Positions 22,077-38,492 are shown, numbered from the stretch's first letter. The stretch is DNA of 38,492 bases from Bdellovibrionota bacterium (GCA_044352465.1 JBILDU010000015.1:1-38492), one strand, 5' to 3'. The notes: a model not told the origin generated them from the letters alone. A program made the numbers and translations.

Positions 22077-23639
22077 TCAAGGACTTGGCCGAAACTCGTA
22101 GATGACGCCGGTCGCATCGGTATAAACCGAACGAAATTCAGGTTCGTTCAAGAGGGTCGCCGTGATCGAAAGGTCGTGAGGCAAGAGCGCGACGGTGGCA
22201 TTCCTGTCGAACATGAATTGTTTAAACAGCTCCTTTGTTTCGAGTGCTCGCTCATATTCCCGATAAAAATCAGCGCCGAGCATCGTATTGCGGTCGTCGA
22301 TGATCGGTCGTACGAACTCTCCTCCCCGCCACGTTATGAAACCACCCCACTTTGGGGGAGCGACGACGACGCTCGGGGTTCGTGGAGTGGCTGATTTTCG
22401 AAGGAATTCGACCGCACCGTAAGGAAATTCTGCGGGAGGAGGCCCAAACGGTCCGGCAAACGGGCCTACCCTCCCTCGAATGAGAGGGTCGACGATGAGG
22501 AGCGCGCACACGATGAGCGTCGTGATAATCCCACGAGACCGGGTATTTTCTTTTAAAGAGAGTCCAAGCCACGCTTGCCGTAGAGCGCCGCGCCAGCCCC
22601 GGCTCGTTGGCCCGATAACGGTGTGATTCGCCACCGAGCGGGCGAATGGGACCGCCATGACGATCCCAAAAAAAGGCACCATACGCACTGATGAGAAGGC
22701 GAGATATCCAAATATCAAGAATACAAGGAGTTCGAACGACGAAAACGAACGGGGCTTTCGCTCGGTGAGCCCGGAGATACTCCCTATAAGGCACGTCACC
22801 AGAAGCACGAGCCCAACGCCGTTGGTTGGGTCGGGGGGCAGCCACTCTTCGTGATACGTCATAAAAAATCGATCACTTCCGAGGGCGACGATCGAACGGT
22901 GGAGCTCGAGCCCGTTCGGGTTAATGCACGAACCGAGTGCTCCGCAGAGAAGCTCGCGGATTCGGGCACCGAGAGGGGGGAGTATCGTTGCGGTGTTCCG
23001 TCGAGCTGTGCAATCGAGCGCTATTCCCAGCGCTCGGAGGGCCAGGAGCAGGAGACCGAGGACGAAAGAGGGGTGGAGATTCGCCCAGACGATAAAGAGA
23101 GGTAAGAGGTAGATCTCGAACGGTACACTCCAACGCTTCGAAGCGGCGGCGGTGCGAACGTTAATCTCGCGGCGCCAGAGAAGCGCACAAAGGATCGCAA
23201 AGCAGAAGAAGCCGAAGATGACCGGGCGCAAAATGAAGTGAAGTTGCCCAAGTTTAAAAGCGAGGAGGGTAAAGGTCGCCGCCATGAGCGGGGCTCCGGT
23301 AAGTCTTACCGTCATGGGGTAGAGAATCGCGTAAAAGGTCGCCAGGTAAGTCGCCGCGAGAAATCCGTAGACGAGTGGCCACGCGCCGGCGGCATACGAC
23401 GTAAAGAGGAGTACGTCAGCCAGCCATTGGTCGGAAATCCATGGTCGGGGATGGGGGGAGAACAGAAAGGGGTCGGTCTGTGGAACTGTCTCGTGTTTTA
23501 AAACGTACTCCCCGTTGGCGAGGTGCCACCCGACCCCCGGGTCGCGTGCAAAGCCGGTCATCTGGACGGCAGTAAGAGATATAACCGCCAGCAGAGCGAG
23601 AACGTCTTGAAGTCCGAATATCCGTTGGCGTTGCTGCAT
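22077..23639 (-). CDS. multi-pass membrane protein, putative GT-C-fold glycosyltransferase
   Basis: First-loop RDPGVGWHL..G..P.TDPF..W...QWL, RP, WANLH, INPNG and EEWLP motifs; many TM segments; C-terminal soluble domain with WGGFI..IDDR. The function is inferred. Confidence 0.6.
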   Translation of the reverse strand: MQQRQRIFGLQDVLALLAVISLTAVQMTGFARDPGVGWHLANGEYVLKHETVPQTDPFLFSPHPRPWISDQWLADVLLFTSYAAGAWPLVYGFLAATYLATFYAILYPMTVRLTGAPLMAATFTLLAFKLGQLHFILRPVIFGFFCFAILCALLWRREINVRTAAASKRWSVPFEIYLLPLFIVWANLHPSFVLGLLLLALRALGIALDCTARRNTATILPPLGARIRELLCGALGSCINPNGLELHRSIVALGSDRFFMTYHEEWLPPDPTNGVGLVLLVTCLIGSISGLTERKPRSFSSFELLVFLIFGYLAFSSVRMVPFFGIVMAVPFARSVANHTVIGPTSRGWRGALRQAWLGLSLKENTRSRGIITTLIVCALLIVDPLIRGRVGPFAGPFGPPPAEFPYGAVEFLRKSATPRTPSVVVAPPKWGGFITWRGGEFVRPIIDDRNTMLGADFYREYERALETKELFKQFMFDRNATVALLPHDLSITATLLNEPEFRSVYTDATGVIYEFRPSP

Positions 23640-23898
23640 CGAATCAAATGGGGCAAACGACAGCTTTTCGTTAGGAGTCTACCCCGTTACCCAAAAAGCG
23701 GTAGGGGGAGCAGCGCTTTTTCGAGACGACGTTTTGCTTTCGAGCGACGGGGCGGCATTTTTTTCAAAAAACTCTCCCGAAATTAGATGGCGGTGGGCCG
23801 ATTGGTTCGTAACATGGCGCGACGACCTCAATACTCGATCAGTTGGGCTCATCGGCTGCTCGTTTCCTGAGGGAACTTTTTCGTAAGGATCTCCTGCG

Positions 23899-26800
23899 GT
23901 GTCTCCACAGGTCTTCAATTGGTGCCGGCTCGCCCGGGAAGGGTGGTTTATCTGGCTGCTGCTCGGTATCGCGCTGGTGCTGCGAATCGGTGGGGTCACT
24001 CACGGCGTTTCTTTTCACCCTGATGAGCGCCACATCATCTCGGTGACGGAACGAATGTTGCGCGAGGGCGATTGGAACCCCCGCTTTTTCGCCTATGGCA
24101 GCTTTCCCTTCTATCTCCATGGATTTGCAACGATCGTCTTCAAGCCGGTGTGGCCGTGGCTCGGAACGTACGATGGTCTATTCGTTGTCGGGCGTTCGAT
24201 CGCGGTGCTTTGTGGGGTCCTGACCGTTTTTCTCACTTTCCACCTCGGAAGGTTTGTCTCCGGTGCGCGCTCGGTAGGGTTCTTAGCGGCACTCCTGCTC
24301 GCGCTCAACGTTTTTCACGTGCAGCTCTCCCGTTTCTACACCGTCGATGTTGTTCTCACGACGATCTCCGTGGGTGCCACGTTACTCTTTTGTCGGATCG
24401 CGCGCGGTGGTTCGCGCCGCGATTATAGCTTGGCCGGCCTAGTGATGGGGTTAGCTCTCGCCACAAAGATTAGCGCACTTTCGTTGTTGGCACCTTTTCT
24501 TGTGGCGGTTGGAATTGAGCGGCTTAGCCGTAAAGATTGGGGCTCCTGGAGGTCTTACCGGGGAATGGTAGGGGCGTTGGTGCTGGCGTTGCTTTTCCTC
24601 TTTCTTGCGGCCCCGTACTCCTTACTCGATTATCAGACGTTTCTCCGCCACAACCACGAGCAGATCGCGATGACGCGAGGAGACTGGCGTCCCCCCTATA
24701 CGGTTCAATACGCCGAGACAGCTCCGTATACCTACGCCCTTGAGCAGATGTATCGATATACCTTTGGGCCGTTCCTTGGAATCGTGGTATTGATGGGAAC
24801 GGTGTGGCTTGGATTCCGACAGCTTCGCCGCCTCCGGCCCCTCGAATGCGTGCTCCTCGCAGCGATTATTCCGGTCTTCGTTCTCGTTGCCGGTCTGCAG
24901 GTGAAGTTTCCGCGCTACCTCTTACCGCTCTATCCGCTTCTGTGTGTGTGTGGTGCCCTTGGACTGCGTGCGCTCGGCGAGCAGTTAGCCGCTCTGGTGC
25001 GTTCGGCGCGGTGGGCGGAATCGATGCGGGTGCTCCCAGCAGCGGTGGTGATCGTGGCTAGTGCGATCTATGTGAGCGCCTTTGTCGGTATATATCGCCA
25101 GCCCCATAGTTATGTCGCCGCCTCTGAATGGATCTTTGAACATGTGCCTCCCGGAGCGCGTCTCCTGGGGGTTCACTGGGATGATAAGCTACCGCTCTCC
25201 CTCCCGGGGCGCTCGCCGCACCTGATGCGCTATCAGTATGAGGGGCCGGAGCACGAACTGGTCGTCTATGAGCCGGAATCTCCGGCAAAGCTCGACCGCA
25301 TGGCCACGCAGCTCGCGAATCACGATTTCATCATCTTGCCGACGGCTCGGACGTACGGCTCAATCCCGCGCCTCCCAGGGGAGTTTCCCGATACAACCAG
25401 GCTCTTTTCCGCCCTTTTTAGGGGGGAGCTCGGCTACGGTCTGGTGCAAAGTTTTAAAGTGCGTCCGACCGTCGGTAGCCATGTCTTTAACGACGACCTC
25501 GCCGATGAGAGCTTCTCGGTCTACGACCATCCCAAGGTCCTCGTTTTTCGGAATATCGGACGGCTCAGCCACAGAGAGATCGCTCGCCGTATCACGGCCG
25601 AGGGGACTGAAGCTCCGCTGCTCACTCGGGCAGAGATGTTGCGCTGGGATGGACCCGCGGATGATCCGCCACACTCAGCCCCGTCCTCGTGGTGGGCGCT
25701 CGTGGTGTGGTTCCTCGTTGTACAGCTCGCCGCGTTTACGGTCGCTCCCTTTATCAGCGCGCTATTTCCGCATGCGCCCGACCGCGGGCTTGGAATTGCG
25801 AAGCCGCTCGGTGCCTTTGCCCTTACCTTTGTCGTGTGGCTTCTCTGTTGGTACGGGGATGTTCCCACCTCGGGGGGTGTTGTTGGGGCGGTGCTGCTCG
25901 TCGGGATTTGTGGGGCGCATCTCTTTGTGCTCCAGCGGTGGGGCGGATGGCGTTGCTATTTCGTATGTGCCCGCCCCCATCTCCGTACCGTTGAGTTGGT
26001 TTTTATCGGATCGTTTCTTCTTTTTGCTGCGATTCGGGCGTGTTCTCCCGCGATCTTCTGGGGAGAGAAGCCGATGGATTTTACCTTCCTCAACTACTTT
26101 ACGCGGCTTCAGACCTTACCTCCTGGGGAACCGTGGGTCGCGGGGCTCCCGATGGGTTACTACTACCTCGGCTTTTACCTTCTGGGGGCTTTGCACAAGG
26201 TGACCGGTGTCGATCCAGCGATCGGCTTTAACCTCGCTATTGCAACGATCGCGGCGTGGCTCATCGCTGCGTTGTATTCACTCGGCGCATGGCTGACCGG
26301 GGCACGTCGCGGAGGGCTCCTCATCGCCTTGGGCGTTGCGCTGCTCAGTAATTGGGAGGTCTTGCGTCTGGCTTTTTTTGCAGGCCGAGCGTGGAACTTC
26401 GATCTCTTCTGGGCGTCGAGTCGGGTCCTGACTTCGCCCGCGATCACGGAGTATCCGCTCTGGTCGCTGCTCTTCGCCGATCTTCATGCCCACGTGATCG
26501 CATTACCGTTCACCGTGGCGTTGATCTTTACGGCGTTTGCTCCCTTCAAGCGCTCCGGGTGCGAGACAAGCTCCCGCGGTTTGGTCGAGAGCGCTGTCCA
26601 CGGGCTTATCCTCGGAAGCCTTTTTGCCCTCAATACGTGGGATTTCATTAGTGGGGTTGGATTTTCCATCGTTGGCGTGCTTCTCCGAGTTGTATTGGCT
26701 GATCGGGGGAGAGGGTGGTGGACCGGGGTAAAGGTGGTGGGTTTTGATGTTCTCATCATCGGTCTCACCGCGGCGCTCGTGGTGATTCCGTTCGCGGTCA

Positions 26801-27909
26801 CATCGGTAAAAACTGAGCAGATTCATTGGGGGTGGGTGCGGGGCGAATTTGCGCAGTTACCCCAAGTTGTCGGGCACCTTGGTTTGTGGTGGTTACTCCT
26901 CTTTATCGGCTCCGCCGGTGCGATAGGGCGACTCGTTCGCGGTGCTTTTTGCCGTGGCGGCCTGCTCCGGATCGGCTTCGTACTCTCGGTCGCTGCGGCG
27001 CCGCTGGGGCTCGCGATTCTGGCGAGCGGTGCAGGGGTGCGGGGATTCTCCTGGGGACTGGTAGGGATGTGGTCGCTTCTCGCGGGAGCGGCGAGTGCCG
27101 TTTTGATCGGCGCGCCCGAGCGTCTCGAACGACGGCTGATGGGAGCCCTCGCGTTGTGTGGCATCGCGCTTGGAGTTGGAGCGGAGTTTCTCTTCTTGAT
27201 GGATCGGATGAATACCATCTTTAAGTTCTATCACTTCGTGTGGACGGCTCTCGCGGTATCGTCGCTCGCGCTCGTTTACGGAGCTGCGCAAAGTGCCCCT
27301 TCACTCGGTGAGCTGTGGCGGGGGAGTTGGATGAAGCGAGCCTCCGTTGGTGTGATCAGCGGTGGTGTCGTGATCGCTGCTATCGGCACCGCAATAAATC
27401 TGTGGGCGATGGTCCCCTTTCAGCGGGTCGATAGTCCTCGCCCCACCCTCAATGGCCAACTCTATCTCGAGCGATCAAATCGGGAGGATGCGCCTATCAT
27501 CGCTTGGTTGCGGCGCAACGTCACCGGCTTACCGACGATACTCGAGGCGTGGGGGGAGTCGTACGGTCCGTACACCCGGATCGCGATGCATACCGGCCTC
27601 CCCACCGTTCTTGGGTGGGAGCATCATGTACGTCAACGCGGGGCAAGCGACGACGAGGTGAGGCGTCGTAAGCGTGATATCATGACTGTGTACCACAGCA
27701 CCGACATCGTTCAGTCGTTACGTATCCTCAAGCGGTATGGGGTTACTTTCGTCGTTGTCTCCGCACTTGAGCGGGCAACGTATCCCCATGAGGGGCTGCA
27801 GAAGTTCGACCGATATCCGCAGTACTTTAAGGTGGTACAACGCACTTCAACCGCCGCACTCTATCGGGTCGTGCTGCCTCCCGGTGGGGTTCTCGATGGG
27901 ATAAGGTAA
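23899..27909 (+). CDS. fusion of a PMT/ArnT-like (GT39/GT83) domain and a DUF2298 (Chlor_Arch_YYY, TIGR03662-like) domain
   Basis: N-half has FHPDER, NPRFFAYG, SRFYTVD, LATK and KFPRYLLP; C-half has GEKPMDF, GYYYLG, SRV, EYP.WS...DLHAH, NTWD, RMNTIFK and LGWEHH. Confidence 0.88.
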   Translation: MSPQVFNWCRLAREGWFIWLLLGIALVLRIGGVTHGVSFHPDERHIISVTERMLREGDWNPRFFAYGSFPFYLHGFATIVFKPVWPWLGTYDGLFVVGRSIAVLCGVLTVFLTFHLGRFVSGARSVGFLAALLLALNVFHVQLSRFYTVDVVLTTISVGATLLFCRIARGGSRRDYSLAGLVMGLALATKISALSLLAPFLVAVGIERLSRKDWGSWRSYRGMVGALVLALLFLFLAAPYSLLDYQTFLRHNHEQIAMTRGDWRPPYTVQYAETAPYTYALEQMYRYTFGPFLGIVVLMGTVWLGFRQLRRLRPLECVLLAAIIPVFVLVAGLQVKFPRYLLPLYPLLCVCGALGLRALGEQLAALVRSARWAESMRVLPAAVVIVASAIYVSAFVGIYRQPHSYVAASEWIFEHVPPGARLLGVHWDDKLPLSLPGRSPHLMRYQYEGPEHELVVYEPESPAKLDRMATQLANHDFIILPTARTYGSIPRLPGEFPDTTRLFSALFRGELGYGLVQSFKVRPTVGSHVFNDDLADESFSVYDHPKVLVFRNIGRLSHREIARRITAEGTEAPLLTRAEMLRWDGPADDPPHSAPSSWWALVVWFLVVQLAAFTVAPFISALFPHAPDRGLGIAKPLGAFALTFVVWLLCWYGDVPTSGGVVGAVLLVGICGAHLFVLQRWGGWRCYFVCARPHLRTVELVFIGSFLLFAAIRACSPAIFWGEKPMDFTFLNYFTRLQTLPPGEPWVAGLPMGYYYLGFYLLGALHKVTGVDPAIGFNLAIATIAAWLIAALYSLGAWLTGARRGGLLIALGVALLSNWEVLRLAFFAGRAWNFDLFWASSRVLTSPAITEYPLWSLLFADLHAHVIALPFTVALIFTAFAPFKRSGCETSSRGLVESAVHGLILGSLFALNTWDFISGVGFSIVGVLLRVVLADRGRGWWTGVKVVGFDVLIIGLTAALVVIPFAVTSVKTEQIHWGWVRGEFAQLPQVVGHLGLWWLLLFIGSAGAIGRLVRGAFCRGGLLRIGFVLSVAAAPLGLAILASGAGVRGFSWGLVGMWSLLAGAASAVLIGAPERLERRLMGALALCGIALGVGAEFLFLMDRMNTIFKFYHFVWTALAVSSLALVYGAAQSAPSLGELWRGSWMKRASVGVISGGVVIAAIGTAINLWAMVPFQRVDSPRPTLNGQLYLERSNREDAPIIAWLRRNVTGLPTILEAWGESYGPYTRIAMHTGLPTVLGWEHHVRQRGASDDEVRRRKRDIMTVYHSTDIVQSLRILKRYGVTFVVVSALERATYPHEGLQKFDRYPQYFKVVQRTSTAALYRVVLPPGGVLDGIR

Positions 27910-27914
27910 ACGGT

Positions 27915-29981
27915 ATGGTCATCGCTTTTTTTACCGCGGCGCTCGGTATTCTCGCCTGGTTACTCCGACTCCCCGTATTTGAGACGGTTATCGGGCTCCT
28001 TCTCCTCGTGCCGATAGCGGTGTATCCGTTCGTGGGCAACGGTGATATCTCGGTGCTTGCGTATGGGCTGACACTCTTTTTTCTCGGTGGCGCTTGCGTC
28101 TGGCTTCAGCGGGGTGGGGAGGCGCGATCGCGCGGAGCGTTTCTCGACTCAACCGAATCGCTTGGAGTGTTTCTCGTTTTCTTCCTTTTTAATTATTCGC
28201 TCTGCCTTCTTTGGCCTGATTTTATCGCGATGGGAGAGCGGCTGCGCGATTATGCCCTCCTCGCTTCGGTATATCATTCGCCGGTAGTTCCGCGTGAACC
28301 GTGGCTCGCCGGAGCGGCGCTCAACTATTACCTCTATTGGTATCGGTTCGGCCACCTTCTCGGCACCATCGGTGGACTCGAGGTGTGGCAGATCTATCCC
28401 CAACTTCAATCCTTCACCTTTGCGCTCTTTACCACGGCAGTTTTCCATCTGACCCGACGCACCCTGAGGTTGAGGCCGGAGCTTGCCCTGGTTGCTGCGG
28501 CGATTATCGCGTACGGCTCCAACATCGCAGGGATCGAGGCTTTTCTGAGGGACGATGATAATTGGTGGGGACCCTCGCGGGTGATTCCGGGAGCTATTAA
28601 TGAGTTTCCCGCGTGGTCGTTTCTCCTTGGGGATCTCCATCCCCATTTCATGAATCTCTGTCTGGCGCCCTTCTTGGTGGTGCTCGTGGTAGGACTGCTT
28701 GCTCGGCGAGATCGTCTGAGCGGAGCGGCGCTCGGCGCTTTACTCTTGGTCTCCCCGTGGTGGATTTATAATGCCAACGCGTGGGAGGTGCCGCTATGGC
28801 TGGGGTGGTGTGGGCTCGCCGGTCTCAGTGTTGCTGCGGCGCTATGGCGGTCGGAAACGCTCAGCGATATCCCGGGGCGGTTGCGCGCCCTATCGCGCGA
28901 CCTCCGTTTCTGGGCAGTCGTGGGAGGCGCTCTTGGACTTACCCTTTCCTTGTTCCTGTCCTCCCGGAATATCGTTCCGGGGGACACTCCGCTCAAGCTC
29001 GTGACCGGCAGTATCGCGCGCACGCACTTAGGAGACCTGCTGCGTCACTGGGGTTTTCCGCTGGCGCTTATCGGGGCAAGCCTCGTCGCCCTGCGAGCGC
29101 AGGCGAGTGAGCGGGGCCTCGCGGCGCTTCTCCTGGGTGCCACGCTGCTCTCTCCTGAGGCGCTGCCGTTTCTGAGTGCGCTCACCGCACTCGCGACGTG
29201 GCGTGCTGTGACCGCGATCCTTGAGTACCGCCAACGGCCAGCGGAGTTAACGCTTCCCGCCCTTATCGTCAACGCGTTAGGGGTCGGGGCACTCGCACTT
29301 CTTATTCTTCCCGAAGTTGTCTTCCTCGACGATCCGTACGGGGGAGAAAACGAGCGGATGAACACTATTTTTAAAGTGTATGCGGCGACCTGGTTTGCGC
29401 TCCACCTTTTCGCCTTTGCACTGCTCGCTGAGGTCGGACGTCAGCTCAGAGGTGGTACTCGAATCCGGGGTGCTCTGACAGCGCTCGGTATCGTTATGGC
29501 GATCCTCCTCACCGGATTTTTTGTGCGGACGATCGATTTACGGCGAACAAAAGAGCGTTTCATCGAGCCGTACGCCCAAGGATTAAGTGAGATTTCACGC
29601 CGCTTCGAGGGGGCCGGACCAGCGATTCAAGAGCTCCTTCGGTTACCGCGGGGAGTTGTGTTGGAGAGCCAAGGGCCGGCGTACGACTATACCACCCACG
29701 TGGCGACGTTGAGTGGGAATACCGCGTTTCTCGGCTGGGCCAATCATGTGAATCTCTTGACGCGAGCCTACGGTGAGATCTCGCGGCGCGAGGAGGTGAC
29801 GCGTGAGTTCTATCTCGGAGCGGACTGCAACGCGAAACGTTCTGTGCTCACCCGTGAGGGGATAGACTATGTGGTTCTGGGACCGCTTGAGCGCAAGGCG
29901 TATCCCGGGATCGAACCGGGCAGCTTCGATTGCCTCCGTTCCGTTATCACTCGGGGAAGTTACACGATCTTTGCGCCGTAG
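27915..29981 (+). CDS. DUF2298 (Chlor_Arch_YYY-like) membrane protein, second paralog
   Basis: GERLRDY, EPWLAG, NYYLYW, SRVI, INEFPAWSFLLGDLHPH, NAWE, RMNTIFK and LGWANH match the motif order of the upstream gene. Confidence 0.85.
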   Translation: MVIAFFTAALGILAWLLRLPVFETVIGLLLLVPIAVYPFVGNGDISVLAYGLTLFFLGGACVWLQRGGEARSRGAFLDSTESLGVFLVFFLFNYSLCLLWPDFIAMGERLRDYALLASVYHSPVVPREPWLAGAALNYYLYWYRFGHLLGTIGGLEVWQIYPQLQSFTFALFTTAVFHLTRRTLRLRPELALVAAAIIAYGSNIAGIEAFLRDDDNWWGPSRVIPGAINEFPAWSFLLGDLHPHFMNLCLAPFLVVLVVGLLARRDRLSGAALGALLLVSPWWIYNANAWEVPLWLGWCGLAGLSVAAALWRSETLSDIPGRLRALSRDLRFWAVVGGALGLTLSLFLSSRNIVPGDTPLKLVTGSIARTHLGDLLRHWGFPLALIGASLVALRAQASERGLAALLLGATLLSPEALPFLSALTALATWRAVTAILEYRQRPAELTLPALIVNALGVGALALLILPEVVFLDDPYGGENERMNTIFKVYAATWFALHLFAFALLAEVGRQLRGGTRIRGALTALGIVMAILLTGFFVRTIDLRRTKERFIEPYAQGLSEISRRFEGAGPAIQELLRLPRGVVLESQGPAYDYTTHVATLSGNTAFLGWANHVNLLTRAYGEISRREEVTREFYLGADCNAKRSVLTREGIDYVVLGPLERKAYPGIEPGSFDCLRSVITRGSYTIFAP

Positions 29982-30039: not shown

Positions 30040-32046
30040 TCAGTTCGTCAGACCAACTTGAGCCGGTACCGGCACACTCTCCGACCGTCGCGCCAGGAAC
30101 GAAAGATCGGAGTAGCCCGGGTCGTTCCACGGGGTATGGTTGAGCGCGTAGGCGAGATAACGCTTGAGTGTCATCTTTGAGTAGTCCGGAACCCACCAGC
30201 CGCGTAATGGAATCTTCATGGCGTTCCACCCCGCCGGAACGTTCTCGTGGGGTTCTTTAAAGTCTTGGAAGATGTAGCTAAAGGTCGGCCGCTCCTCCGG
30301 AGTAGCGGTAAACTTATACTGGGGGATATCAACCAGATACCAGGTGATCGGCCAAACCACATCGCCTGTTCCGAGGATGGTTGGCTTCTGAGCCCCGGTC
30401 GGAGCGAGGATATCGTCCCTAATTTTCAGTACGAGATCGTGAAACTCGTGCGTGGTATGGACCTGACTGAGGAACTCGTTCGCCTTGCCGGCGTACGTGT
30501 AGTTCGTGAGGATCGCCGCTCGAAGCGAGTAGGCTGAGAAGACCAGGAGGAGCACACCTTTGATCGCGCAGCTACCGAACATACCGCGCCATCCCTCAAG
30601 ATAGCCGAGTGCAAGAATCAGGCAGGTCAGCCCGAGAAGCCCCGCATTCGGTTGATAGCTATCCTCGATAATGAAAATGAGGGTAAGGACGCCGAGGATC
30701 GACCCACCATAAAGAAGAACGGTCTCCCACGGAACCCGCTCGGGGAGGGGGCGGGCCCGGAATTCAGCCTCGAAATAGAGGGCGAGATAGATCAGCCCGG
30801 CAACGAAAGGATAAATCGTGAGCCACGGCACCTTTTCTCCGAGATAGCTGTAGGTAAAAAGGTTCGCGGTGAAGAGATAACCCCAGATGGCGAGCGCCCG
30901 TTCGCGGCGGAGGGTATGGTACACCGTGACGACGAAGGGGTGCACCAGGAGCACGAACAAGCCGATAAGATCGAGTTTGTCCTTCAGTTTAAAAAGCTGC
31001 CACACCGGCGAGGATTCAACCGGAGATCCGATGGCGTGAATCCAAGCGAAAATAAGTCCTCCGAGTGTTGCTCCACCGGTAAGCTTCGCCCACAGCGGGG
31101 CACGCCGGTAAAAGAGCGTTAGATGGAGGAGGAAAGCGAGCAGAAACGGGAGCTCGTACCACGAGAGCACATACAGATGAAAGTTAAAGGGCCCTTTGAT
31201 TCGCTCCATCGAGTGGTGTTCGAGCCAATAGCCGATACTTTCGCGATACAGTCCATCAAGAATACCCTCGCTATAGCGAAATCCTGCGGAAAAGAGGTAG
31301 CAGAACCACAACGTGGCTAATCCCAATCCGATGAGTGTCTCCCACCGATAGGTCCGCACGTAAGTCCAAAGACGCGCCACCGCGGTGTCTCTCTCTCGCA
31401 GCACGACGCGGTGAAAGAGGAGGTCGAACGTTAGGTAGCCGAGTAAGATCGCCGTCGTCACGAATGAGTTCTCTTTAATGGTGAACATCCAGGCGAACGC
31501 GAAGAGAAACACGATCGATTTGAGCCGGGCGGGCGCGAACGCAACGGCGTACACCATCAGGAGCATCGAGCAAAGGGAGGGGATATCCTCACGGATGAAT
31601 CGCGACCAATAGATTAAAGTCGGCGAGAGTGCGACAACCGCAGTGAGATAGAGAACCGTTGTTTTCGAGAAGTAGCGCCGCGAAAGATAGGGCAAAAAGA
31701 TCAAAATTGTTCCGAGAGCCGCGATCGCTGCGCGGATCGCCCACGTTGAGCTGCCCAAGGTGTTGTAGACGAAACGAAGCATGTTGTAGAGAAAAGGCCC
31801 GTGGAGCATCGGGTTGTATTTGTAGTAATTCTGCTCCGGAAAATCGAAGAAATAACGACCGTACATCCCGTGGAGCGACTCGTCGTGATGCATCGGACGC
31901 ATATCGAGGAGAAGCCAGCGGAGGAGTAGTCCTGCCAGGATGAGCGTGGCGAATATAACCCATTCGCTCGGGCTAAACCGCCAGGTCGTCGGTGTCTCCG
32001 CGCGTGGTGCCGCCGTTTCTGGTGCTGCCGTTACGGTGTGAGACAT
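30040..32046 (-). CDS. TIGR03663 family PMT-like membrane protein (Agl23-like)
   Basis: N-terminal HHDESLH (DE), MLHGP (HGP), SRFIRED, KEN and EKVPWL; strong GAGGAG SD; adjacent to DUF2298 genes, as described for this family. Confidence 0.85.
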   Translation of the reverse strand: MSHTVTAAPETAAPRAETPTTWRFSPSEWVIFATLILAGLLLRWLLLDMRPMHHDESLHGMYGRYFFDFPEQNYYKYNPMLHGPFLYNMLRFVYNTLGSSTWAIRAAIAALGTILIFLPYLSRRYFSKTTVLYLTAVVALSPTLIYWSRFIREDIPSLCSMLLMVYAVAFAPARLKSIVFLFAFAWMFTIKENSFVTTAILLGYLTFDLLFHRVVLRERDTAVARLWTYVRTYRWETLIGLGLATLWFCYLFSAGFRYSEGILDGLYRESIGYWLEHHSMERIKGPFNFHLYVLSWYELPFLLAFLLHLTLFYRRAPLWAKLTGGATLGGLIFAWIHAIGSPVESSPVWQLFKLKDKLDLIGLFVLLVHPFVVTVYHTLRRERALAIWGYLFTANLFTYSYLGEKVPWLTIYPFVAGLIYLALYFEAEFRARPLPERVPWETVLLYGGSILGVLTLIFIIEDSYQPNAGLLGLTCLILALGYLEGWRGMFGSCAIKGVLLLVFSAYSLRAAILTNYTYAGKANEFLSQVHTTHEFHDLVLKIRDDILAPTGAQKPTILGTGDVVWPITWYLVDIPQYKFTATPEERPTFSYIFQDFKEPHENVPAGWNAMKIPLRGWWVPDYSKMTLKRYLAYALNHTPWNDPGYSDLSFLARRSESVPVPAQVGLTN

Positions 32047-32103: not shown

Positions 32104-33489
32104 TTAGGCGCCGCCGGAGCGGGTCACGTGGTAGGTCACTTCGGGGGTGCCCTGAGCGATAAAGTTAGCCCATTCGACCCCTTGCATGAAAGTGTGATCC
32201 TGGTTGGATACCTCGTACTTCCACCCCCCGAATCGCCCGCGGGAGAAGATGCCGATCTGTTCGAGCGCGGGAATAACCCGGTCGAGGATCGCGTCACGCT
32301 CGAGAGAGGGGGTGGGATAACCGTAGGGGGCCCGATACGACCACGTTGAAACAACCTCATCGTTTGCCGAGATAAGGCGGGTGGCGCGAAGTCCGGCGAT
32401 GGTCTCAGCGATGAGGTTTGCTTGGTCAACCGGTTTTACGGGTGACTCGCTCGTCTCCGTCATCAAGGAGAAGTATCTTTCGATATCGGGGACGTTGTGT
32501 GGGCTGTACTTCGAAAAGAGGGTGACCCGGTAGAAGGGGCAGTTGCTCTCGGGAAAATACATCCAACATTTCGAAGCGAGGGGGGGGGATGGCTGGCCCC
32601 GTAGACCGATGCCGACGATGTTCGAGGAGGAGTATTTGAGTCGCCCCGCCGCTTCAACGAGGTTCGCTGGGAATGTCTCTACAAGGGTGGCGAGACGATC
32701 GACCGGGATCGTTGAGAGAAGATGGGTGTAGCCGAGCGTCTCACCGTTTGCGAGCACGACCTGTTTGGCGTGGGGATCAATTCTCACGGCGCTTGCCTCG
32801 AGGGTGATGTGTTCCCGGCCAACCAGGTCGCCCACCGCTTGCCAGATCGCTCCCGTGCCCCCGTGACGGGGAAAGCGGAAGAGGTTGTTGGGGCCCCACG
32901 AGAGATCGTCTTTATCGAGGGCGATATTGCGTGCTACCCGCTCAAGGTCCACTACCGAGACCCGCTCCCCGATCCACTGAAAGGCCATCTCCGCGAGCGG
33001 GTATGCCCAGACCTTAAAGTTATAGGGGACCATAAATTCCTCAGCGATACCCTCGCCGAAGATGCTGAGGACCCACTCGTGGAAATTAGTCGGCGGTGGG
33101 GCCGGTGTCTTCGTGATGTCGATGATCCCCTTGAGGCACCGCCACATCGCTTCCTTGGGGAGATAGCGGATATTATTTTGAAACGGGTAGGGAACGAATC
33201 GTTCCTTCATCCACACCCACGATTCCCGCTCGTGTGAAAGCCACCCCTCTTTGCCGAGAGCGCCATCCATGACCGCATCAAAATAAGGGTAGTGCGAGAA
33301 TTGTACGTGGCCGCCGATGTCCCAGGTAAAGCCGTGTGAGTCAATGAAGCTTGCGGCGAGTCCTCCCACCCACCGATTGGATTCGATGAGGTGAAAGTCA
33401 TTTTCGCCGATCTCGCGTAGCCGGTAAGCCGCGCCGAGTCCCGCGGGACCCGCGCCGATGATCAGGTATTTCACTTTACGTGAGCTCAT
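32104..33489 (-). CDS. FAD-dependent UDP-galactopyranose mutase, eukaryote (UgmA/GLF)-type
   Basis: GAGPAGL, DIGGHVQFSHY, VPYPFQNNI, PYNFKVW, WIGERV, WGPN..FRFP..GGTG, CWMYFPE..PFYR, GYPTP and RGRFG.WKYEV.NQDH. Start ATG 33489 overlaps the upstream TGA (ATGA). Confidence 0.82.
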   Translation of the reverse strand: MSSRKVKYLIIGAGPAGLGAAYRLREIGENDFHLIESNRWVGGLAASFIDSHGFTWDIGGHVQFSHYPYFDAVMDGALGKEGWLSHERESWVWMKERFVPYPFQNNIRYLPKEAMWRCLKGIIDITKTPAPPPTNFHEWVLSIFGEGIAEEFMVPYNFKVWAYPLAEMAFQWIGERVSVVDLERVARNIALDKDDLSWGPNNLFRFPRHGGTGAIWQAVGDLVGREHITLEASAVRIDPHAKQVVLANGETLGYTHLLSTIPVDRLATLVETFPANLVEAAGRLKYSSSNIVGIGLRGQPSPPLASKCWMYFPESNCPFYRVTLFSKYSPHNVPDIERYFSLMTETSESPVKPVDQANLIAETIAGLRATRLISANDEVVSTWSYRAPYGYPTPSLERDAILDRVIPALEQIGIFSRGRFGGWKYEVSNQDHTFMQGVEWANFIAQGTPEVTYHVTRSGGA

Positions 33490-34238
33490 CGGGGCTCCTT
33501 GAGGGTGGTAAGCGCATGGGGCAGGGCGCAACGAAAAGCGACGAGCTCCCGAACTGAGCGGAAGCACGCCTTGATAAGTCGCCACCGTACGATCGAAACA
33601 GCACCGGTCGTACGGTCGCGGTGAGTGACCGGAATCTGAAAGAGATCTTCGCCTGAGCGACGCGCCAGGACCGCCAGAAAGATATTCGGGGCGAACGCAT
33701 CAGCGGGGATGAGGGGGAGTAGTCGCGCGAGGAAGTCGGTGCGCATGAGCCGGAAGGGGATATTAGCGTCCGGGATGCGGGTGCCAAAAAGCAACGTGTT
33801 GAGGTAGCGCAGTATCCGTGTAATCACGAGGCGGTGAAATGCGTCGTGGCGTGCCACCCGACGGCCGGTGATAAATCGGGATTGGTCCCGCTTTGCCCAA
33901 AGGGTATCAAAGTCGGCGATCGCAAATTGATCATCGCTATCGATCTGAAATATCCACTCCGGTGAGAGGGCAAGAGCGTCGGTGTATCCGTGCAGGAGGG
34001 CGTTGCCATGCCCCCCGTTCGGCTGATGGATCGGGACGATGCGGGGCTCGACCGCAGCTAAGCGGTCGAGGATCTGCGGGGTGCGGTCGCGTGAGCCGTC
34101 GTTGACCACAATGATCTTAAAAGCTTCAAAGCGAGCGGCAAAGAAATCACGCAGCCCGGTGAGAACCGACTCGATACATCCCTCCTCGTTGTAGGCTGGT
34201 ACCACGACGCACAGTTGAAGTGAGTGAGGGGCGGGCAT
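33486..34238 (-). CDS. GT2 polyprenyl-phosphate glycosyltransferase (DPM1/Ppm1-like)
   Basis: VVVPAYNEE, VVNDGSRDRT, NGGHGNAL, DSDDQF, DANIPFRL and PVTHRDR; about 250 aa with no TM tail. Confidence 0.85.
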   Translation of the reverse strand: MPAPHSLQLCVVVPAYNEEGCIESVLTGLRDFFAARFEAFKIIVVNDGSRDRTPQILDRLAAVEPRIVPIHQPNGGHGNALLHGYTDALALSPEWIFQIDSDDQFAIADFDTLWAKRDQSRFITGRRVARHDAFHRLVITRILRYLNTLLFGTRIPDANIPFRLMRTDFLARLLPLIPADAFAPNIFLAVLARRSGEDLFQIPVTHRDRTTGAVSIVRWRLIKACFRSVRELVAFRCALPHALTTLKEPR

Positions 34239-34464
34239 GCTTTGGGTTAAAACCTCGTCAAAACTAAGATTAAGCCCCTACGCTACCATCGACTATGAGG
34301 GGGGCGCAAAAGCTCCGCACGTCGTGGTGGTGATTTGGTTTCGCCGAAAAAACGGTGCTCCAGCTCGCCGCTTCAGTCTAAAGAGTCGATTTTATTCATC
34401 GGAAAGAGGCGTGTTCTTCCTTAAGGAGAACGTAAGATATGCCGAAATAATAACGGGGTTTTGT

Positions 34465-35307
34465 ATGCTAACGGGTCACACATCGCCGGGGCGCTGCGCT
34501 GGGACGAACGAGCTGCGCCCGATTACCCCATCTTTAAGGGGGAGCCGGGGGGCGGCGCTCCTTGAGTTCGCGGTCGTGGTGCCCCTGCTCATCTTTGTTT
34601 GTCTGTGGGTCGGCTCGCTCGGTTTCGCGATATCCCAACTCGTGTGGCTATCGGAGGCGTCCTATGCCGCGGTCGTTGCGGGGGCGGAGGAGCGGTCGAC
34701 CAGTGTGGCGACAACTGAGGGATTCGTCGATGAGCTTTTCACGAGTCGCCACGGGCGGGGATTAGAGGGTCCCATCGTATTATCAAATCGGGAGGCGGAG
34801 GTTCGTAACGATTTGGGCACCGATGATAGCGGGCCATCAGGCCAAGCTCCCCTGATATCACTCACCGTTGCGCTCGAATCGAGACCGCTTTTAGGCTTTT
34901 TGCCCGTTTTAGATTTAGGTCTTACCACCGTGGTGTCGCGCCTTACGGTTGGGGGAGATCCAGGAGACCTTTCTGAGCCGGGCAACATCGAGTCCGCTTG
35001 CAGCGGGGAGTGGCAACTCCCATGCGGCAGCTGCGGAGGGGTGTGCCATCCCAACGGCGGTAATCCCGGTGGTGGTAATCCCGGTGGCACCAAGGGGAAT
35101 GGCGCCGTCGTGTCGGAGCAGGTGGAGCCGATTCCGCCGGGGCTCAGTCCCGGTGGTTGGTCGACTGATGCAACGGACCCACCTGACAATTTAGACCCCA
35201 TCCCCTCGGGTCACTCTGGTAAGGGAGGTGGTAACACCGGGTATGAGGCGGCCCCGATCAATGTCGTGCCTCCCTTACCGGGAGAGACTGAACAAAACTG
35301 GTACTAA
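34465..35307 (+). CDS. TadE-like pseudopilin with a Cys cluster and Gly/Pro-rich tail
   Basis: RGAALLEFAVVVPLL (G|xxxxE prepilin motif plus TM). Start moved to ATG 34465. Confidence 0.75.
   Translation: MLTGHTSPGRCAGTNELRPITPSLRGSRGAALLEFAVVVPLLIFVCLWVGSLGFAISQLVWLSEASYAAVVAGAEERSTSVATTEGFVDELFTSRHGRGLEGPIVLSNREAEVRNDLGTDDSGPSGQAPLISLTVALESRPLLGFLPVLDLGLTTVVSRLTVGGDPGDLSEPGNIESACSGEWQLPCGSCGGVCHPNGGNPGGGNPGGTKGNGAVVSEQVEPIPPGLSPGGWSTDATDPPDNLDPIPSGHSGKGGGNTGYEAAPINVVPPLPGETEQNWY
35059..35088 (+). repeat. 15-bp tandem duplication encoding GNPGG twice
   Basis: GGTAATCCCGGTGGT followed by GGTAATCCCGGTGGC. Confidence 0.75.
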
Positions 35308-35673: not shown

Positions 35674-36864
35674 GTGGTGCTAAAATTTTTATCTTCAACT
35701 ATCCGCCTTTCTCATCGAGGTGCGTCGTACGCTGAAGCGGTGATATCGATCCCGCTCTTTCTCCTTTTTATCCTTGGATTTATCGATATCTCCCGCGGCC
35801 TTTTCACCTATGTAATGCTTCAGCACTCGGCGCAACGGGCGGCGGATTTCGCTTCGAAAGTTGAGATCGAGATCGACACAACCCACGCTAAGTGTGCCGC
35901 TCCGGCGGGCGGGGGTGTGCCGGCTAACACGGCGTGTCGTCAATATCGGGAGCGGCTCGGTGAGATCGTTGCTCTCGCTACCGAGCGCGCCGCGTTGGTT
36001 GCCTCCAAAGGTGGGGACTCCGCTGCGCGACTGGTCCGGTTTCGTCATTACAATCGGGAGTTGTACGAAGGTGCGGGGTTCGGGATATGGCGAGTTCCGA
36101 GTTCCGGTCAGGGTCCCGATGGGTCGGGGCTCGTCGATTTCACCGATTATGCAGCTTTTCTAAGACCGGGTGAGATAGTTGAGGAGGTCGATGAGGGGGG
36201 AAGTCCGAGCGGTTTTAAGGTAGAGCACTTTTCAAGGCTCTTTCGTTGTCCAGATGGGTGGAACGGTACTCCCCCGTGTCCCGGACGGGGGTGGCCATCG
36301 TTTGGAGAGAGCTGGGGTTCGGTGTTAAGGGATGAGCCGGTCGAGGTTATCGTTCAAGCGGTGTTCAAACCGATTATTCCAGGGATCGGATCTTTTCGCC
36401 TCACCGGTCGAGCCGCCGCGTTTCGGCAGATTCGGGCCTTTAGTAGCGCTCCGCCTGCTCCCACAGCTACGAGAACCCCTACCCCCATTCCAACGATAAC
36501 CCCCACACCGACGATAACGCCCCTACCGACCGCCACGCCGACGATCACTCCGACGCCAACGATAACGAATACCCCAACCATCACCCCCACGCCGACAAAC
36601 ACTCCAACAGTAACACCGACCCCGACAGGAACGCTGCCCACTGCAACAGCAACGGCGACACCGACGGTAACAAGGACGCCGACGAATACCCCAACGGCTA
36701 CCCCGAGCCCAACTCCGACGACGAATTGCCTGACGCAGTGCTCCTCTCCAGAGATCGGCGCACGGTGTAGTAGCCCAGGGGGATACCCAGCTATCTGTCA
36801 GCTCTGCAGTAGTTGCCCCCAATTTTGTATCTGTCCACCTACCCCAACTCCTCTTCCAGGGTGA
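35674..36864 (+). CDS. TadE-like pseudopilin with a Pro/Thr stalk and Cys-rich C-terminus
   Basis: [24 protein letters not shown]...LQHSAQRAA TadE signature. Confidence 0.82.
36451..36723 (+). repeat. Pro/Thr low-complexity repeat (PTxT units), about 91 aa
   Basis: [23 protein letters not shown]...TPSPTPTT; about 40 Thr; codons vary between units. Confidence 0.95.
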
Positions 36865-36896
36865 TATAGTGTGATAATCTAAGGCATACAGAAATT

Positions 36897-38492
36897 ATGC
36901 GGCGTCCTCCTCGACTAAATAAGTGCCCAAGCGATCGTGGCATTTATATTACCCTCGTAGCGGTATTTGGGTTGGTGCTGCTCGGATTTGTCGCGCTCGT
37001 TATCCAACTCGGTCTCGCTGCCGCGGCCCAAAGTAGACTCCAGCTCGTGGCGAACCTTGCGGCGCTTAGCGCTATCGAGCAGTACGTCCGGTTTACGCCC
37101 GCGGACGGGGATCAAAACCCGCTTGAAGACTCACGTCGGAATGCGACAACCTCCCGGGCGAACTCGATCCTCCAAGCGAATTCGGTCTGGGGGCTCGATT
37201 CCTCGAGGTTTGAGCTCGAGCCGGGTGCAACCTCGGGGAGTCGGATCGTTTTCGGTACGTGGCACCGCTTCGATCCCGATGGGTCAGGGGGCGTTTCGTG
37301 TCAGAAATATCCGTGTTTCGTCCCGTTTGTTAATGCTGAGGCTATCTCAGGCAATGCGGTTCGCTTGGTTGTGGAGAGTGAGTCAGACAATCCGTTCACC
37401 CGATTTCTCGGGAGTATCTTCGGGCCCGACACCTTGACGATTCGAGCGGAAGCCACCGCCACCTTAGTAAAGCGGTGTATGGCTTTCTTGGTCGATCTAA
37501 GTCTCACCTCGACGAACGAGACCCATGCGGTTCCGGGGAGGACATCCTTTCCCACGTGGCGAGGGCCATCAGAGCCGCTGGATCCGTTGCGGGAATCGGT
37601 GGGTTTTTACGGTGATCTGAACGCTGATAACGCGGTAACCGTCTACGATCCCTCGCAGAAAGGGATCCCGGCGTTTCCAGGTGGCGCTTTTCCTCTGCCT
37701 TTCCCGATGAATCTTGGGCTCTATGCCTACGTTGATCCTCCGAGCGCGTGTGACTATACGACCCTTACCCCAGCGGTCGGACAGATTAATTACTCAGCGC
37801 TTTATTGGTGTAGCCTCCTTCGACACCGAGACTTCATCACCGATCCGGAGCTTCCCGATAGTGGACGGAATTATCGCACCCGGGCGGATTATCGCCTCGT
37901 CGAGACCCCGTTTAGTCAAAATGCGATCTACTTCGATTCTGTGACCCGCCCCGAGCCGTTTTCGACCTATCTTTTAGCGTTCAATGCGGCGTTACGCTCC
38001 GTCTACGCCGAGAGCTCAAACGCCGATGAAGCTATGTTCGCGGGATTCTCTAAAGCTATCCCCTACCAGAACGTTAATCGGCGGTATCCCCAATCAGGGC
38101 TCACGAGGAATATCCCTCTTCTCGTTCACCTTACGAATATGAACAATGTCGGAGGTCTCGATTCAAACGGGGATATCACGGGGGTAAATCCGCCAACTTT
38201 TATCGACCTGGGTATTTTCCCTGTCTTCGGCTCGACCGATGCCGCGACGGCATCGAACCTCGCTGGGGTGATTAAACAGACCGCAGGCATGTTAGGGACG
38301 ACTTGTGGTCCAAGTGATCGAAAGGTGATCGTCCTCGCAACCGATGGTCTTGGAAATTGTACCCAATATGGAAACTCTCCGACCTATTGTAGCCCGACCT
38401 GGTTTAAGTACCTGAGCTCTGAAATGCTCTTAGTTGGAACGAGTCCGGGTGGGGTACTAAAAGAGCTCGTTGATAAGCAGGTCGCCCTTACC
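36897..38492 (+). CDS. TadG-like pilus protein with a vWA domain, truncated by the window edge
   Basis: Absent from the ORF track; hand translation is open from ATG 36897 to the end. Shows RGIYITLVAVFGLVLLGFVALVIQLG..LQLVANLAALSA (Tad_N-like), AFLVDLSLTS (MIDAS-like) and KVIVLATDG. Confidence 0.85.
   Translation, partial: MRRPPRLNKCPSDRGIYITLVAVFGLVLLGFVALVIQLGLAAAAQSRLQLVANLAALSAIEQYVRFTPADGDQNPLEDSRRNATTSRANSILQANSVWGLDSSRFELEPGATSGSRIVFGTWHRFDPDGSGGVSCQKYPCFVPFVNAEAISGNAVRLVVESESDNPFTRFLGSIFGPDTLTIRAEATATLVKRCMAFLVDLSLTSTNETHAVPGRTSFPTWRGPSEPLDPLRESVGFYGDLNADNAVTVYDPSQKGIPAFPGGAFPLPFPMNLGLYAYVDPPSACDYTTLTPAVGQINYSALYWCSLLRHRDFITDPELPDSGRNYRTRADYRLVETPFSQNAIYFDSVTRPEPFSTYLLAFNAALRSVYAESSNADEAMFAGFSKAIPYQNVNRRYPQSGLTRNIPLLVHLTNMNNVGGLDSNGDITGVNPPTFIDLGIFPVFGSTDAATASNLAGVIKQTAGMLGTTCGPSDRKVIVLATDGLGNCTQYGNSPTYCSPTWFKYLSSEMLLVGTSPGGVLKELVDKQVALT

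Follow-up and report, generated by a model that had tools for sequence, protein, structure and literature searches.

Organization of the locus

The window analysed is a stretch of 38,492 nucleotides from a Bdellovibrionota bacterium. Six contiguous ORFs span positions 22077-34238, and the gaps between them hold no further long ORF in register, as the earlier note on this DNA had described. That note had also treated the six genes as one block; the contiguity holds, but by orientation they form three units that are oppositely oriented. The gene at 22077 is the first of a leftward series that includes VKOR/DsbA, DHPS and PEPCK, while the two DUF2298 genes, separated by a 5-bp gap, are convergent with the GT2-UGM-TIGR03663 unit. 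The features are as follows:

22077..23639, minus strand: orphan membrane protein, 520 aa, a neighbour; no family match
23899..27909, plus strand: fusion of a PMT-like GT-C with DUF2298/TIGR03662, 1336 aa; PMT_2 E 5e-11, TIGR03662 405.6 bits
27915..29981, plus strand: DUF2298 protein, 688 aa; PF10060 E 3e-58
30040..32046, minus strand: TIGR03663 (Agl23 family) membrane protein, 668 aa; TIGR03663 191.9 bits, cut-off 126
32104..33489, minus strand: UGM, eukaryote-type (long-form), 461 aa; 4dsg and 3uka matches
33486..34238, minus strand: GT2A, polyprenyl-phosphate GT type, 250 aa; PF00535 E 3e-21, ArnC/GtrB matches
34237..35307, plus strand: TadE-like pseudopilin 1, a neighbour; PF07811 E 5e-4 over ORF residues 105-145
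35674..36864, plus strand: TadE-like pseudopilin with a Pro/Thr stalk and a Cys-rich tip; PF07811 E 1e-7
36897..38492, plus strand: TadG-like pseudopilin, truncated by the contig end, a neighbour; PF13400 and PF09977

The true start of pseudopilin 1 is probably near 34467. A promoter scan of the stretch stayed at chance level, Rfam gave no match in it, and terminator-like sites were uninformative. None of the 28 ORFs scanned belonged to the Wzx, Wzy, Wzz, ABC exporter or ligase families, in line with the earlier description of the block.

The GT2A and mutase genes as a probable donor cassette

Among solved structures, the nearest relatives of GT2A were ArnC (E 4e-10, residues 8-228) and GtrB (E 8e-5), and the ArnC match covered the whole catalytic domain. 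GT2A scored below every named NCBIfam cut-off, and C-terminal membrane helices are absent from its 250 residues. From these matches, GT2A likely makes a lipid-linked donor. Its stop codon overlaps the start of the mutase gene (ATGA).

The mutase matched the UGMs of T. cruzi (4dsg, E 3e-145) and A. fumigatus (3uka, E 3e-133) over its full length. The active site of the latter comprises His63, Phe66, Arg182, Asn207, Trp315, Tyr317, Arg327, Tyr334, Tyr419, Arg447, Tyr453, Asn457 and Gln458 (PMC3322874). All 13, mapped by motif, are kept as H60, F63, R175, N200, W308, Y310, R320, Y327, Y390, R418, Y424, N428 and Q429 (numbers counted from base 33486), and none of these residues varies among 27 homologues from bacteria and archaea. 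By family, then, the protein is a eukaryote-type UDP-galactopyranose mutase, with an activity and a sugar presumed from this kinship. It shares with the eukaryotic enzymes (4DSG, 3UKA) the full-length match and every listed active-site residue; however, it is bacterial and coupled to a lipid-carrier GT2, whereas eukaryotic UGMs feed galactofuranosyltransferases that use a soluble donor. With the best GalE score in the genome at 143 bits against a cut-off of 262, the sugar itself is uncertain, and the substrate may be another UDP-pyranose.

GT2A lay directly upstream of UGM in 40 of the best 80 UGM loci, spread over many phyla. Among 37 metagenome GT2A loci with room for a neighbour, UGM was found directly 3' in 16 and a bacterial-type glf nearby in 2 more; the other 19 had no adjacent mutase, 9 of them being near-copies of one arrangement. 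TIGR03663 was a neighbour in only 5 of the best 80 UGM loci and DUF2298 in 2-3, and the surroundings of other GT2A-UGM loci include acyltransferase and polysaccharide genes. The GT2A-UGM pair thus mostly serves neighbours other than TIGR03663/DUF2298. Within the host's order, GT2A was directly upstream of TIGR03663 in all six genomes that have it, with UGM in between in four; the remaining two hold a bacterial-type UGM elsewhere. The donor half of the earlier proposal held up: the two genes are ATGA-coupled, travel together across phyla and, in the order, stand directly upstream of TIGR03663.

Predicted folds of the membrane proteins

The DUF2298 protein (27915-29981) scored 198 bits with Pfam DUF2298, above the cut-off there, and reached 249.1 bits with TIGR03662, under the cut-off of 300.25. 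The fusion (23899-27909) passed that curated cut-off with its 405.6 bits; it also matched PMT_2, PMT, Glyco_transf_22 and DUF2298, carries HPDE at residue 40, and exists as two separate genes in several relatives. In Foldseek, the AF2 model of the DUF2298 protein (pLDDT 94) matched AftA (E 7e-7, the top match) and AglB (E 3e-6). It aligned with ArnT at Z 15.1 (rmsd 5.7, 444 residues aligned), its C-terminal domain aligned with that of AglB at Z 10.1 (rmsd 2.6, 110 aligned), and the top 18 rows of the structure comparison were all GT-C proteins or their kin (Z 15.1 to 9.1). We confidently predict a GT-C fold followed by an OST-like C-terminal globular domain. Residues E108, R109, R111, D112, Y138 and Y139 are invariant in 115 sequences, and the acidic E108 and D112 belong to the first outer loop, which follows the first core helix.

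The TIGR03663 model (pLDDT 93) aligned with ArnT at Z 23.4 (rmsd 4.2, 427 aligned), and H53, H54, D55 and E56, in the first outer loop, are invariant in 120 sequences. A GT-C fold is again predicted with confidence, for a protein that could be a transferase or a flippase. ArnT was the closest fold for both models. No solved structure matched the DUF2298, TIGR03663 or orphan profiles by sequence, and the WWDYG motif of N-oligosaccharyltransferases (STT3/AglB/PglB) is absent from all four membrane proteins.

The orphan (22077-23639) had no Pfam or NCBIfam match, nor did the 50 of its 120 homologues that were scanned match Pfam. Its ESM Atlas features gave 0.92-0.93 to clusters of PMT_2, Dpy19 and STT3, where the shared counts were low, and its D33 is invariant among homologues. 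Comparison with PDB and profiles returned no match, in a profile comparison that also missed DUF2298 against TIGR03663. The orphan is possibly GT-C-like. The gene names given earlier were mostly correct, and four of the up to five GT-C domains proposed are supported; for the fifth, in this sixth gene, the fold is an ESM Atlas lead. As a member of the system the orphan was rejected: present in 38/41 genomes of the order, it occurs in 12 of the 13 without strong DUF2298 and lies beside DUF2298 in 5/28. Pentose-phosphate genes, among them transketolase and ribose-5-P isomerase, are repeatedly found next to TIGR03663 and DUF2298, which we read as synteny with housekeeping genes.

Transferase or flippase

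The function of TIGR03663 had been called poorly defined, yet NCBIfam names the family after the Agl23 flippase. According to the summary in PMC11182771, yeast rft1 is rescued by the Agl23 of Haloarcula hispanica, which in proteoliposomes also flips lipid-linked oligosaccharide. Agl22 and Agl23 likewise pair a dolichol-P-hexose synthase with a TIGR03663-named protein, and supply donors for N- and O-glycans; the description of Agl23 there is that of a flippase, with no role for a mutase or DUF2298. One possibility is that TIGR03663 flips the lipid-linked sugar, GT2-UGM-TIGR03663 being a make-and-export operon and transfer being left to the PMT and DUF2298 domains. Besides the in vitro flipping by a protein linked to TIGR03663 by the NCBIfam name, this would fit with the failure to find GtrA in the genome (94.9% complete), with a donor cassette directly 5' of TIGR03663 in 12/28 DUF2298 genomes, and with the presence of TIGR03663 in all 41 genomes of the order. 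However, the TIGR03663 model is a complete ArnT-like GT-C (Z 23.4) with a transferase-like invariant Asp-Glu in the first outer loop, and contig C35 carries a UPF0104 flippase-like gene, of a kind that precedes PRK07233 in several Chloroflexota. We consider a flippase in place of a transferase rather unlikely; it would alter the division of labour and leave the donor unchanged. In terms of a three-component system, the synthase and the GT-C are present here, and TIGR03663 or UPF0104 are the candidate flippases.

Two probable donor cassettes, never together in one DUF2298 genome of the order

The earlier note had placed TIGR03662 and TIGR03663 mainly in Archaea and Chloroflexi. Both turned out to be common in the host's bacterial order (DUF2298/TIGR03662 in 30/41 genomes, TIGR03663 in 41/41) and are no exotic imports. 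The sample of 41 genomes divides into 28 with strong DUF2298 and 13 others. Each of the 28 holds one GT2 cassette and none holds both: six have GT2A, each with a mutase, and 22 have another GT2, GT2B (best match PgfS, 284 bits, below the cut-off of 500), together with the PRK07233 flavoenzyme. The 12 genomes with a cassette directly upstream of TIGR03663 comprise six of each kind. In three further genomes, G042-G044, all of which hold DUF2298, GT2A-UGM adjoins TIGR03663 or DUF2298. The mutase of the neighbourhood proposed earlier, GT2-mutase-TIGR03663-DUF2298, is not what most DUF2298 genomes of the order have: 22/28 carry GT2B and PRK07233 in its place. Among 71 Chloroflexota genomes, PRK07233 was present in 52/52 with TIGR03662, and among 14 control genomes the two families occurred in the same two, Haloferax volcanii and Methanosarcina acetivorans, for which genetic tools exist. 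The distribution is observed; the equivalence of the cassettes would make the locus a donor-cassette swap, which we find likely. It may have a single origin, as kin are not independent.

What PRK07233 does bears on this swap. At the position of AfUGM Arg327, which binds the beta-phosphate, 36/38 PRK07233 sequences have G, A or S and none has Arg, in an alignment at 19% identity. With this Arg not kept in the 38 sequences, a UDP-pyranose mutase activity is not supported. Against solved structures, generic flavoenzymes outranked UGMs for the PRK07233 profile, and the ESM Atlas returned only its own family. PRK07233 may instead modify the lipid-linked sugar. Tentatively, and with more doubt than conviction, we suggest that DUF2298 and TIGR03663 form an ancient bacterial-archaeal machine, possibly the missing archaeal O-glycosylation machinery, which carries a lipid-linked furanose to Thr-rich surface proteins, and that PRK07233 is a polyprenyl-phospho-sugar mutase making the usual donor by changing ring size after the sugar is linked to the lipid. 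The present genome would reverse the order, mutase and then loading, to reach the same donor, and would so betray the function of PRK07233. The literature searched yielded no description of a polyprenyl-phospho-sugar mutase, and no account of what DUF2298, TIGR03662 or PRK07233 do.

A different donor also had to be considered, since the genome encodes UbiA-DprE1-DprE2, for lipid arabinofuranose. DUF2298 and TIGR03663 might use polyprenyl-P-arabinofuranose (or ribose) from these enzymes, like TfpW/AftA, with GT2-UGM as a mere neighbour feeding another GT-C. AftA was the top Foldseek match of the DUF2298 model, a DprE1-like gene is present in 37/41 genomes of the order, this one included, and DprE1/E2-like genes lie next to DUF2298 in two genomes (G015, G042) and next to GT2B-PRK07233 in two others (G013, G022). 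Yet DprE1 does not track DUF2298, because it is also present in 10/13 genomes without strong DUF2298, whereas both GT2 cassettes do. GT-C matches lie within a few Z units of each other, so that AftA gives no assignment, and different domains could use both donors. On balance, arabinofuranose is an improbable donor for these proteins.

The acceptor

Of the 94 residues (257-350) in the stalk of the second TadE-like protein (36442-36723), 41 are Thr and 26 are Pro, close to the 40 or so Thr first noted. In the C. thermocellum cellulosome, Pro/Thr linkers carry galactofuranose-containing O-glycans; with the terms used, our literature search found no paper on cellulosome or Haloferax galactofuranose O-glycans. 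In view of the Tad stalk, Thr-rich surface proteins or another surface acceptor had been put forward, with a correlation between DUF2298 and Pro/Thr-repeat proteins as a check. The check failed, and the Tad acceptor is not supported. Coding patterns for such repeats occur in 21/28 DUF2298 genomes and 11/13 others, and the link was rejected (median repeat counts 2 and 2, p 0.55). The median was 9.5 in GT2A genomes vs 2 in PRK07233 genomes (p 0.06), among kin that are not independent. The TadE family, found in 14/41 genomes, is in 9/28 with DUF2298 vs 5/13 others; judged by the co-distribution of transferase and pilin expected of a TfpW-type locus, it does not travel with the transferases.

There are reasons to suspect a locus dedicated to the adjacent stalk. 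In 4/6 GT2A genomes (G000, G001, G016, G032) GT2A and the Tad trio point away from each other, and in G016 they separate transketolase from TIGR03663, direct neighbours in ~10 relatives. A long-stalk TadE is present in 5/6 GT2A genomes, streptococcal GT-Cs target Ser/Thr-rich disordered regions, and TfpW arabinosylates a pilin. But 19/28 DUF2298 genomes gave no match to TadE, which occurs in 5/13 other genomes, once with 167 Thr; nine proteins of the present genome have such stalks; TadE lies beside 2 of the best 80 UGM loci; and long-stalk TadE is also found in the PRK07233 genomes G002, G028 and G039, near on the TIGR03663 tree, so that kinship can explain the association. We judge a dedicated function very unlikely: the stalk is a possible acceptor but probably not a dedicated target.

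Alternatively, the GT-C proteins might add sugars to a polysaccharide or glycolipid such as O-antigen, lipid A or capsule, like the Gtr, ArnT and GT136 systems. The closest fold of both models, ArnT, points this way, three-component systems usually act on polysaccharides, other GT2A-UGM loci have the polysaccharide gene neighbours mentioned above, and Wzy_C genes exist elsewhere in the genome. On the other hand, polymer-assembly genes were not found in the block, and Chloroflexota and archaea, which are not known to make LPS and have unrelated envelopes, retain this GT-C set too. Because DUF2298 genomes include these groups, a shared acceptor is unlikely to be LPS, and we give the polysaccharide reading little credence.

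Proposed pathway and related systems

We lean, modestly, towards the following explanation: GT2 and the mutase form a donor cassette for a polyprenyl-phosphate furanose, most likely galactofuranose, which TIGR03663/DUF2298 would move to glycoconjugates over the whole cell surface, probably glycans attached to proteins and not one pilin. UGM, assigned to its family by sequence, would convert UDP-Galp to UDP-Galf, and GT2A, similarly assigned, would put Galf on polyprenyl-P. The lipid would be flipped by TIGR03663 or the UPF0104 protein, and up to four GT-C domains of predicted fold would add or extend sugars outside the cytoplasm. In most relatives, GT2B and PRK07233 would replace the first two steps. 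Products of the 10 PMT_2 matches and 4 Wzy_C genes in the genome might instead be the ones to use the donor or to modify proteins.

Three-component systems (GtrA/GtrB/GtrC, ArnC/ArnT and the Citrobacter youngae pentofuranose system, PMC11127046) combine in the same way a polyprenyl-monophosphate synthase and a GT-C, with an auxiliary enzyme that determines the sugar. Here, in contrast, a UDP-sugar mutase would supply a hexofuranose donor, and four GT-C domains of unassigned families lie in a block without GtrA or a MATE flippase. The streptococcal Pgf and GtrB/PgtC2 systems, which act on Ser/Thr-rich disordered regions, also cluster a GT2, a nucleotide-sugar converter and two GT-Cs; however, Pgf GT-Cs are YfhO-type and transfer the pyranoses Glc and GalNAc (PMC12041528), whereas DUF2298 and TIGR03663 are found here. 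P. aeruginosa TfpW offers a likeness in that a lipid-linked furanose is transferred to pilin outside the cytoplasm by a protein that may also flip, but its donor comes from PRPP via DprE1/E2 instead of a UDP-sugar mutase, and it is dedicated to its own pilin (bioRxiv 10.1101/2020.04.19.049825), while the TadE linkage here is lineage-limited.

A lipid-linked galactofuranose donor, if true, would be a route for galactofuranose absent from the literature searched. The swap would predict the role of PRK07233 and so give an unstudied flavoenzyme family a testable job. DUF2298 gains a confident GT-C fold prediction, and three poorly defined families become open to direct assay.

The block and its genes

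The window is the whole of contig C160 of a 3.13-Mb genome (G000, 94.9% complete), and its close protein relatives are labelled Oligoflexia, Bdellovibrionota or Deltaproteobacteria, depending on the source. The six genes described in the earlier note were all present on reading the ORFs, in a block of uniform GC.

Genes of the block, with the basis of each assignment
22077-23639: orphan membrane protein, no family match
23899-27909: PMT_2 + DUF2298/TIGR03662, family profile search
27915-29981: DUF2298, family profile search
30040-32046: TIGR03663 (Agl23 family), family profile search
32104-33489: UDP-galactopyranose mutase (UGM), similarity to T. cruzi and A. fumigatus UGM
33486-34238: polyprenyl-phosphate-type GT2 (GT2A), family profile search

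GT2A and UGM overlap by ATGA, and UGM lies 57 bp from TIGR03663. The DUF2298 pair, with 5 bp between the genes, converges on GT2A-UGM-TIGR03663, and the orphan is oriented away from the rest. Known three-component systems have this kind of architecture. The mutase call was borne out: the gene had no match to Pfam GLF, resembled the UGMs of T. cruzi (E 3e-145) and A. fumigatus (E 3e-133), and retained 13/13 active-site residues named in PMC3322874, all invariant in 27 aligned homologues. What had been observed was largely right. Also in the window are, 3' of the orphan (16923-21998), genes for a VKOR-DsbA fusion, DHPS, PEPCK, a second GT2 and an SDR, VKOR-DsbA being found again near DUF2298 in many relatives, and, at 1112-3731, an MBOAT + AlgX-like pair of the polysaccharide O-acetylation type, which recurs directly upstream of a short TIGR03663 in G024 and G035.

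One of two cassettes accompanies DUF2298

TIGR03662 gave matches in 30 of the order's 41 genomes, with a best E < 1e-60 in 28. This threshold for strong DUF2298 was chosen after inspection of the list and excluded two genomes: G008, whose best E was 1e-4, and G014, with two fragments at contig ends (E 5e-34). TIGR03663 was present in 41/41 (above cut-off in 37) and lay <15 kb from DUF2298 in 17/28 DUF2298 genomes.

The GT2A orthologue occurred in six genomes, directly upstream of TIGR03663 in all six, with UGM between them in four; in the other two, G016 and G019, a bacterial-type UGM lies at another site. In six further genomes, TIGR03663 was preceded by a different GT2, with two helices (GT2B), and a PRK07233 flavoprotein. 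Orthologues of the latter (E < 1e-120) occurred in 24 genomes, with GT2B directly upstream in 20, and no PRK07233 passed the family cut-off in GT2A genomes (0/6 in the order, 0/3 outside). Every strong-DUF2298 genome carried one cassette, GT2A in 6 and PRK07233 in 22. The 13 others had a PRK07233 orthologue in two cases and neither cassette in 11, three of which hold a distant PRK07233-like gene. G014, devoid of either cassette, may be an exception, and G022 combines a lone UGM with GT2B-PRK07233 and no GT2A. Of the proposed conservation of the neighborhood, the junction of GT2A with TIGR03663 stood (6/6), but 22/28 DUF2298 genomes use the other cassette. Members of the window's own family (G002-G004) are among the users of that other cassette. 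A TIGR03663 tree, quickly built from 32 rows (nine genomes with no full-length ORF in the extracted loci were omitted), nested GT2A genomes among PRK07233 genomes, with three changes; the swap may nevertheless have a single origin. Of all that the analysis yielded, this likely cassette swap is of greatest use.

Neighborhoods of the best 80 UGM loci of 563 relatives came from Bacteroidota, Planctomycetota, Verrucomicrobiota, Bdellovibrionota and others. GT2A was directly upstream of UGM in 40 (69 were long enough to show a GT2); elsewhere UGM adjoined GlfT1-like and ABC-exporter genes, which commonly accompany a galactofuranose mutase. Because TIGR03663 occurred in only 5 of the 80 and DUF2298 in 2-3, GT2A-UGM is a portable cassette. 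Three of these genomes outside the order (G042-G044) have DUF2298, with GT2A-UGM adjoining DUF2298 or TIGR03663. Of 48 metagenome loci with an unambiguous GT2A, 37 extended far enough downstream to show the next gene: UGM was adjacent in 16, a bacterial-type glf was present in 2, and 19 had neither. In Cytophagales-type genomes (L107, L108, L111-L113, L117, L119, L128, L137), the pair was flanked by an acyltransferase, 900-aa and 340-aa proteins without known identity, and MBOAT; some loci also carried a second gene, long and GT2B-like, whose halves are transketolase-like. A record titled Nanoarchaeota encodes a eukaryote-type UGM at 55% identity (L170:10001-11323).

PRK07233 in Chloroflexota and on plasmids

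As an independent check, we used 71 genomes of Chloroflexota, the phylum of G041, and 14 control genomes. TIGR03662 was found in 52 and PRK07233 in 58 of the 71; all 52 TIGR03662 genomes had PRK07233, and the 13 without PRK07233 also lacked TIGR03662. Fisher values for this association are too strong, since small genomes without both mean that genome size and kinship inflate it. The two genes were <10 kb apart in 7/52, one locus being ordered DUF2298-TIGR03663-PRK07233. Among controls, both passed in H. volcanii and M. acetivorans and in no others.

Profile alignment of PRK07233 with UGM spanned 405 columns (E 5e-16), and one member matched C. jejuni UGM (E 8e-7), but non-UGM flavoenzymes matched equally well or better. 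PRK07233 retains a His in its flavin loop and conserved Arg186, Tyr414 and Arg418, and has no Arg at the UGM beta-phosphate-binding position; the UGM R327A mutant is described as inactive (PMC3322874). The two matches examined, out of eight, lay in plasmid operons of Burkholderia and Agrobacterium (L339:518-6757, L340:512-6694), comprising UbiA, DprE1-like, SDR, epimerase, PRK07233 and GtrA genes, with no GT2 within the stretch examined. From gene content, these would encode a lipid-pentose pathway to which two enzymes have been added. A one-phosphate substrate, that is, a lipid-linked sugar, would be in keeping with all three observations. PRK07233 would be a ring mutase rather than an oxidase or epimerase, a reading inferred solely from its replacement by UGM. 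Since GT-C enzymes can use more than one donor (PMC11127046), the two cassettes may yield different sugars.

Membrane proteins and the donor

AlphaFold2 models of DUF2298 (115 of 120 homologous rows listed, query included; pLDDT 94) and TIGR03663 (120 rows; pLDDT 93) each matched GT-C enzymes. Foldseek matched the DUF2298 model to AftA, AglB, STT3 and DPY19; Z was 15.1 for ArnT, 14.5 for ALG12 and 14.0 for AglB, whose C-terminal domain the modelled one resembles (Z 10.1, rmsd 2.6). The TIGR03663 model matched ArnT with Z 23.4. In homologue alignments, acidic residues of the first outer loop are invariant in both families; a motif search found WWDYG in no membrane protein of the block. The GT-C claim held for DUF2298 and TIGR03663 at model level; for the orphan, an Atlas comparison is a lead and no more. 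The orphan family, with no Pfam match, occurs in 38/41 genomes and in four copies in G000 (paralogues on C76, C138 and C7), with an invariant D33 and a DDRN motif, and may represent a GT-C family not yet listed. In G009, G022, G026 and G027 (L069, L071, L068, L070), a TPR protein gene and a YfhO-like gene have as neighbor a third DUF2298-like gene, which is divergent. A short TIGR03663 (about 500 aa), forming a separate branch, is kept in genomes without the DUF2298 pair (L083, L085, L087-L091, L224-L227) and often adjoins pentose-phosphate genes; the long form lies 3' of transketolase in about ten genomes.

A rival reading makes TIGR03663 a flippase and not a transferase: it is named after Agl23, reported in PMC11182771 to flip a lipid-linked glycan in vitro, and a profile search found no GtrA in G000 (94.9% complete). 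Elsewhere in G000, a flippase-like UPF0104 (LPG_synthase_TM) gene adjoins a DPM-type GT2 (C35, L180:1-1759); the family also lies 5' of PRK07233 in several Chloroflexota loci. G000 also offers a second furanose donor on C146 (L173:514-4866), where a GT2, a HAD-fused UbiA (PRK08238), and DprE1-like and DprE2-like genes would form a polyprenyl-P-arabinofuranose pathway, but the DprE1-like gene is in 37/41 genomes and does not track DUF2298. No GalE exceeded the cut-off in a genome-wide profile search of G000. On balance, a lipid-linked furanose donor made by the block is plausible and slightly favored.

The acceptor

The Pro/Thr-rich TadE stalk, said to hold about 40 Thr, has 41 in 94 residues, but 9/3142 ORFs of G000 pass the same Pro/Thr filter. 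The Tad trio is divergent from GT2A in G000, G001, G016 and G032. The proposal that the pseudopilin is the reason for the locus found no support: the TadE family occurs in 14/41 genomes, 9/28 with DUF2298 versus 5/13 without, and the expected correlation with PT-repeat proteins failed (Thr-Pro-repeat coding pattern in 21/28 versus 11/13). We consider a dedicated Tad acceptor very improbable. By analogy with streptococcal glycosylation of Ser/Thr-rich regions (PMC12041528) and with TfpW (bioRxiv 10.1101/2020.04.19.049825), the stalk would be a fair candidate, one of many. In G032, four TadE genes encode stalks with 108-138 Thr, and three of these genes belong to tandem trios next to the GT2 (C235, L072; L235, L253); G033, with no DUF2298 match, has one TadE with 167 Thr.

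The literature searches found no paper on a hexofuranose lipid donor, a GT-C role of DUF2298 or the function of PRK07233; if real, all three would be new.
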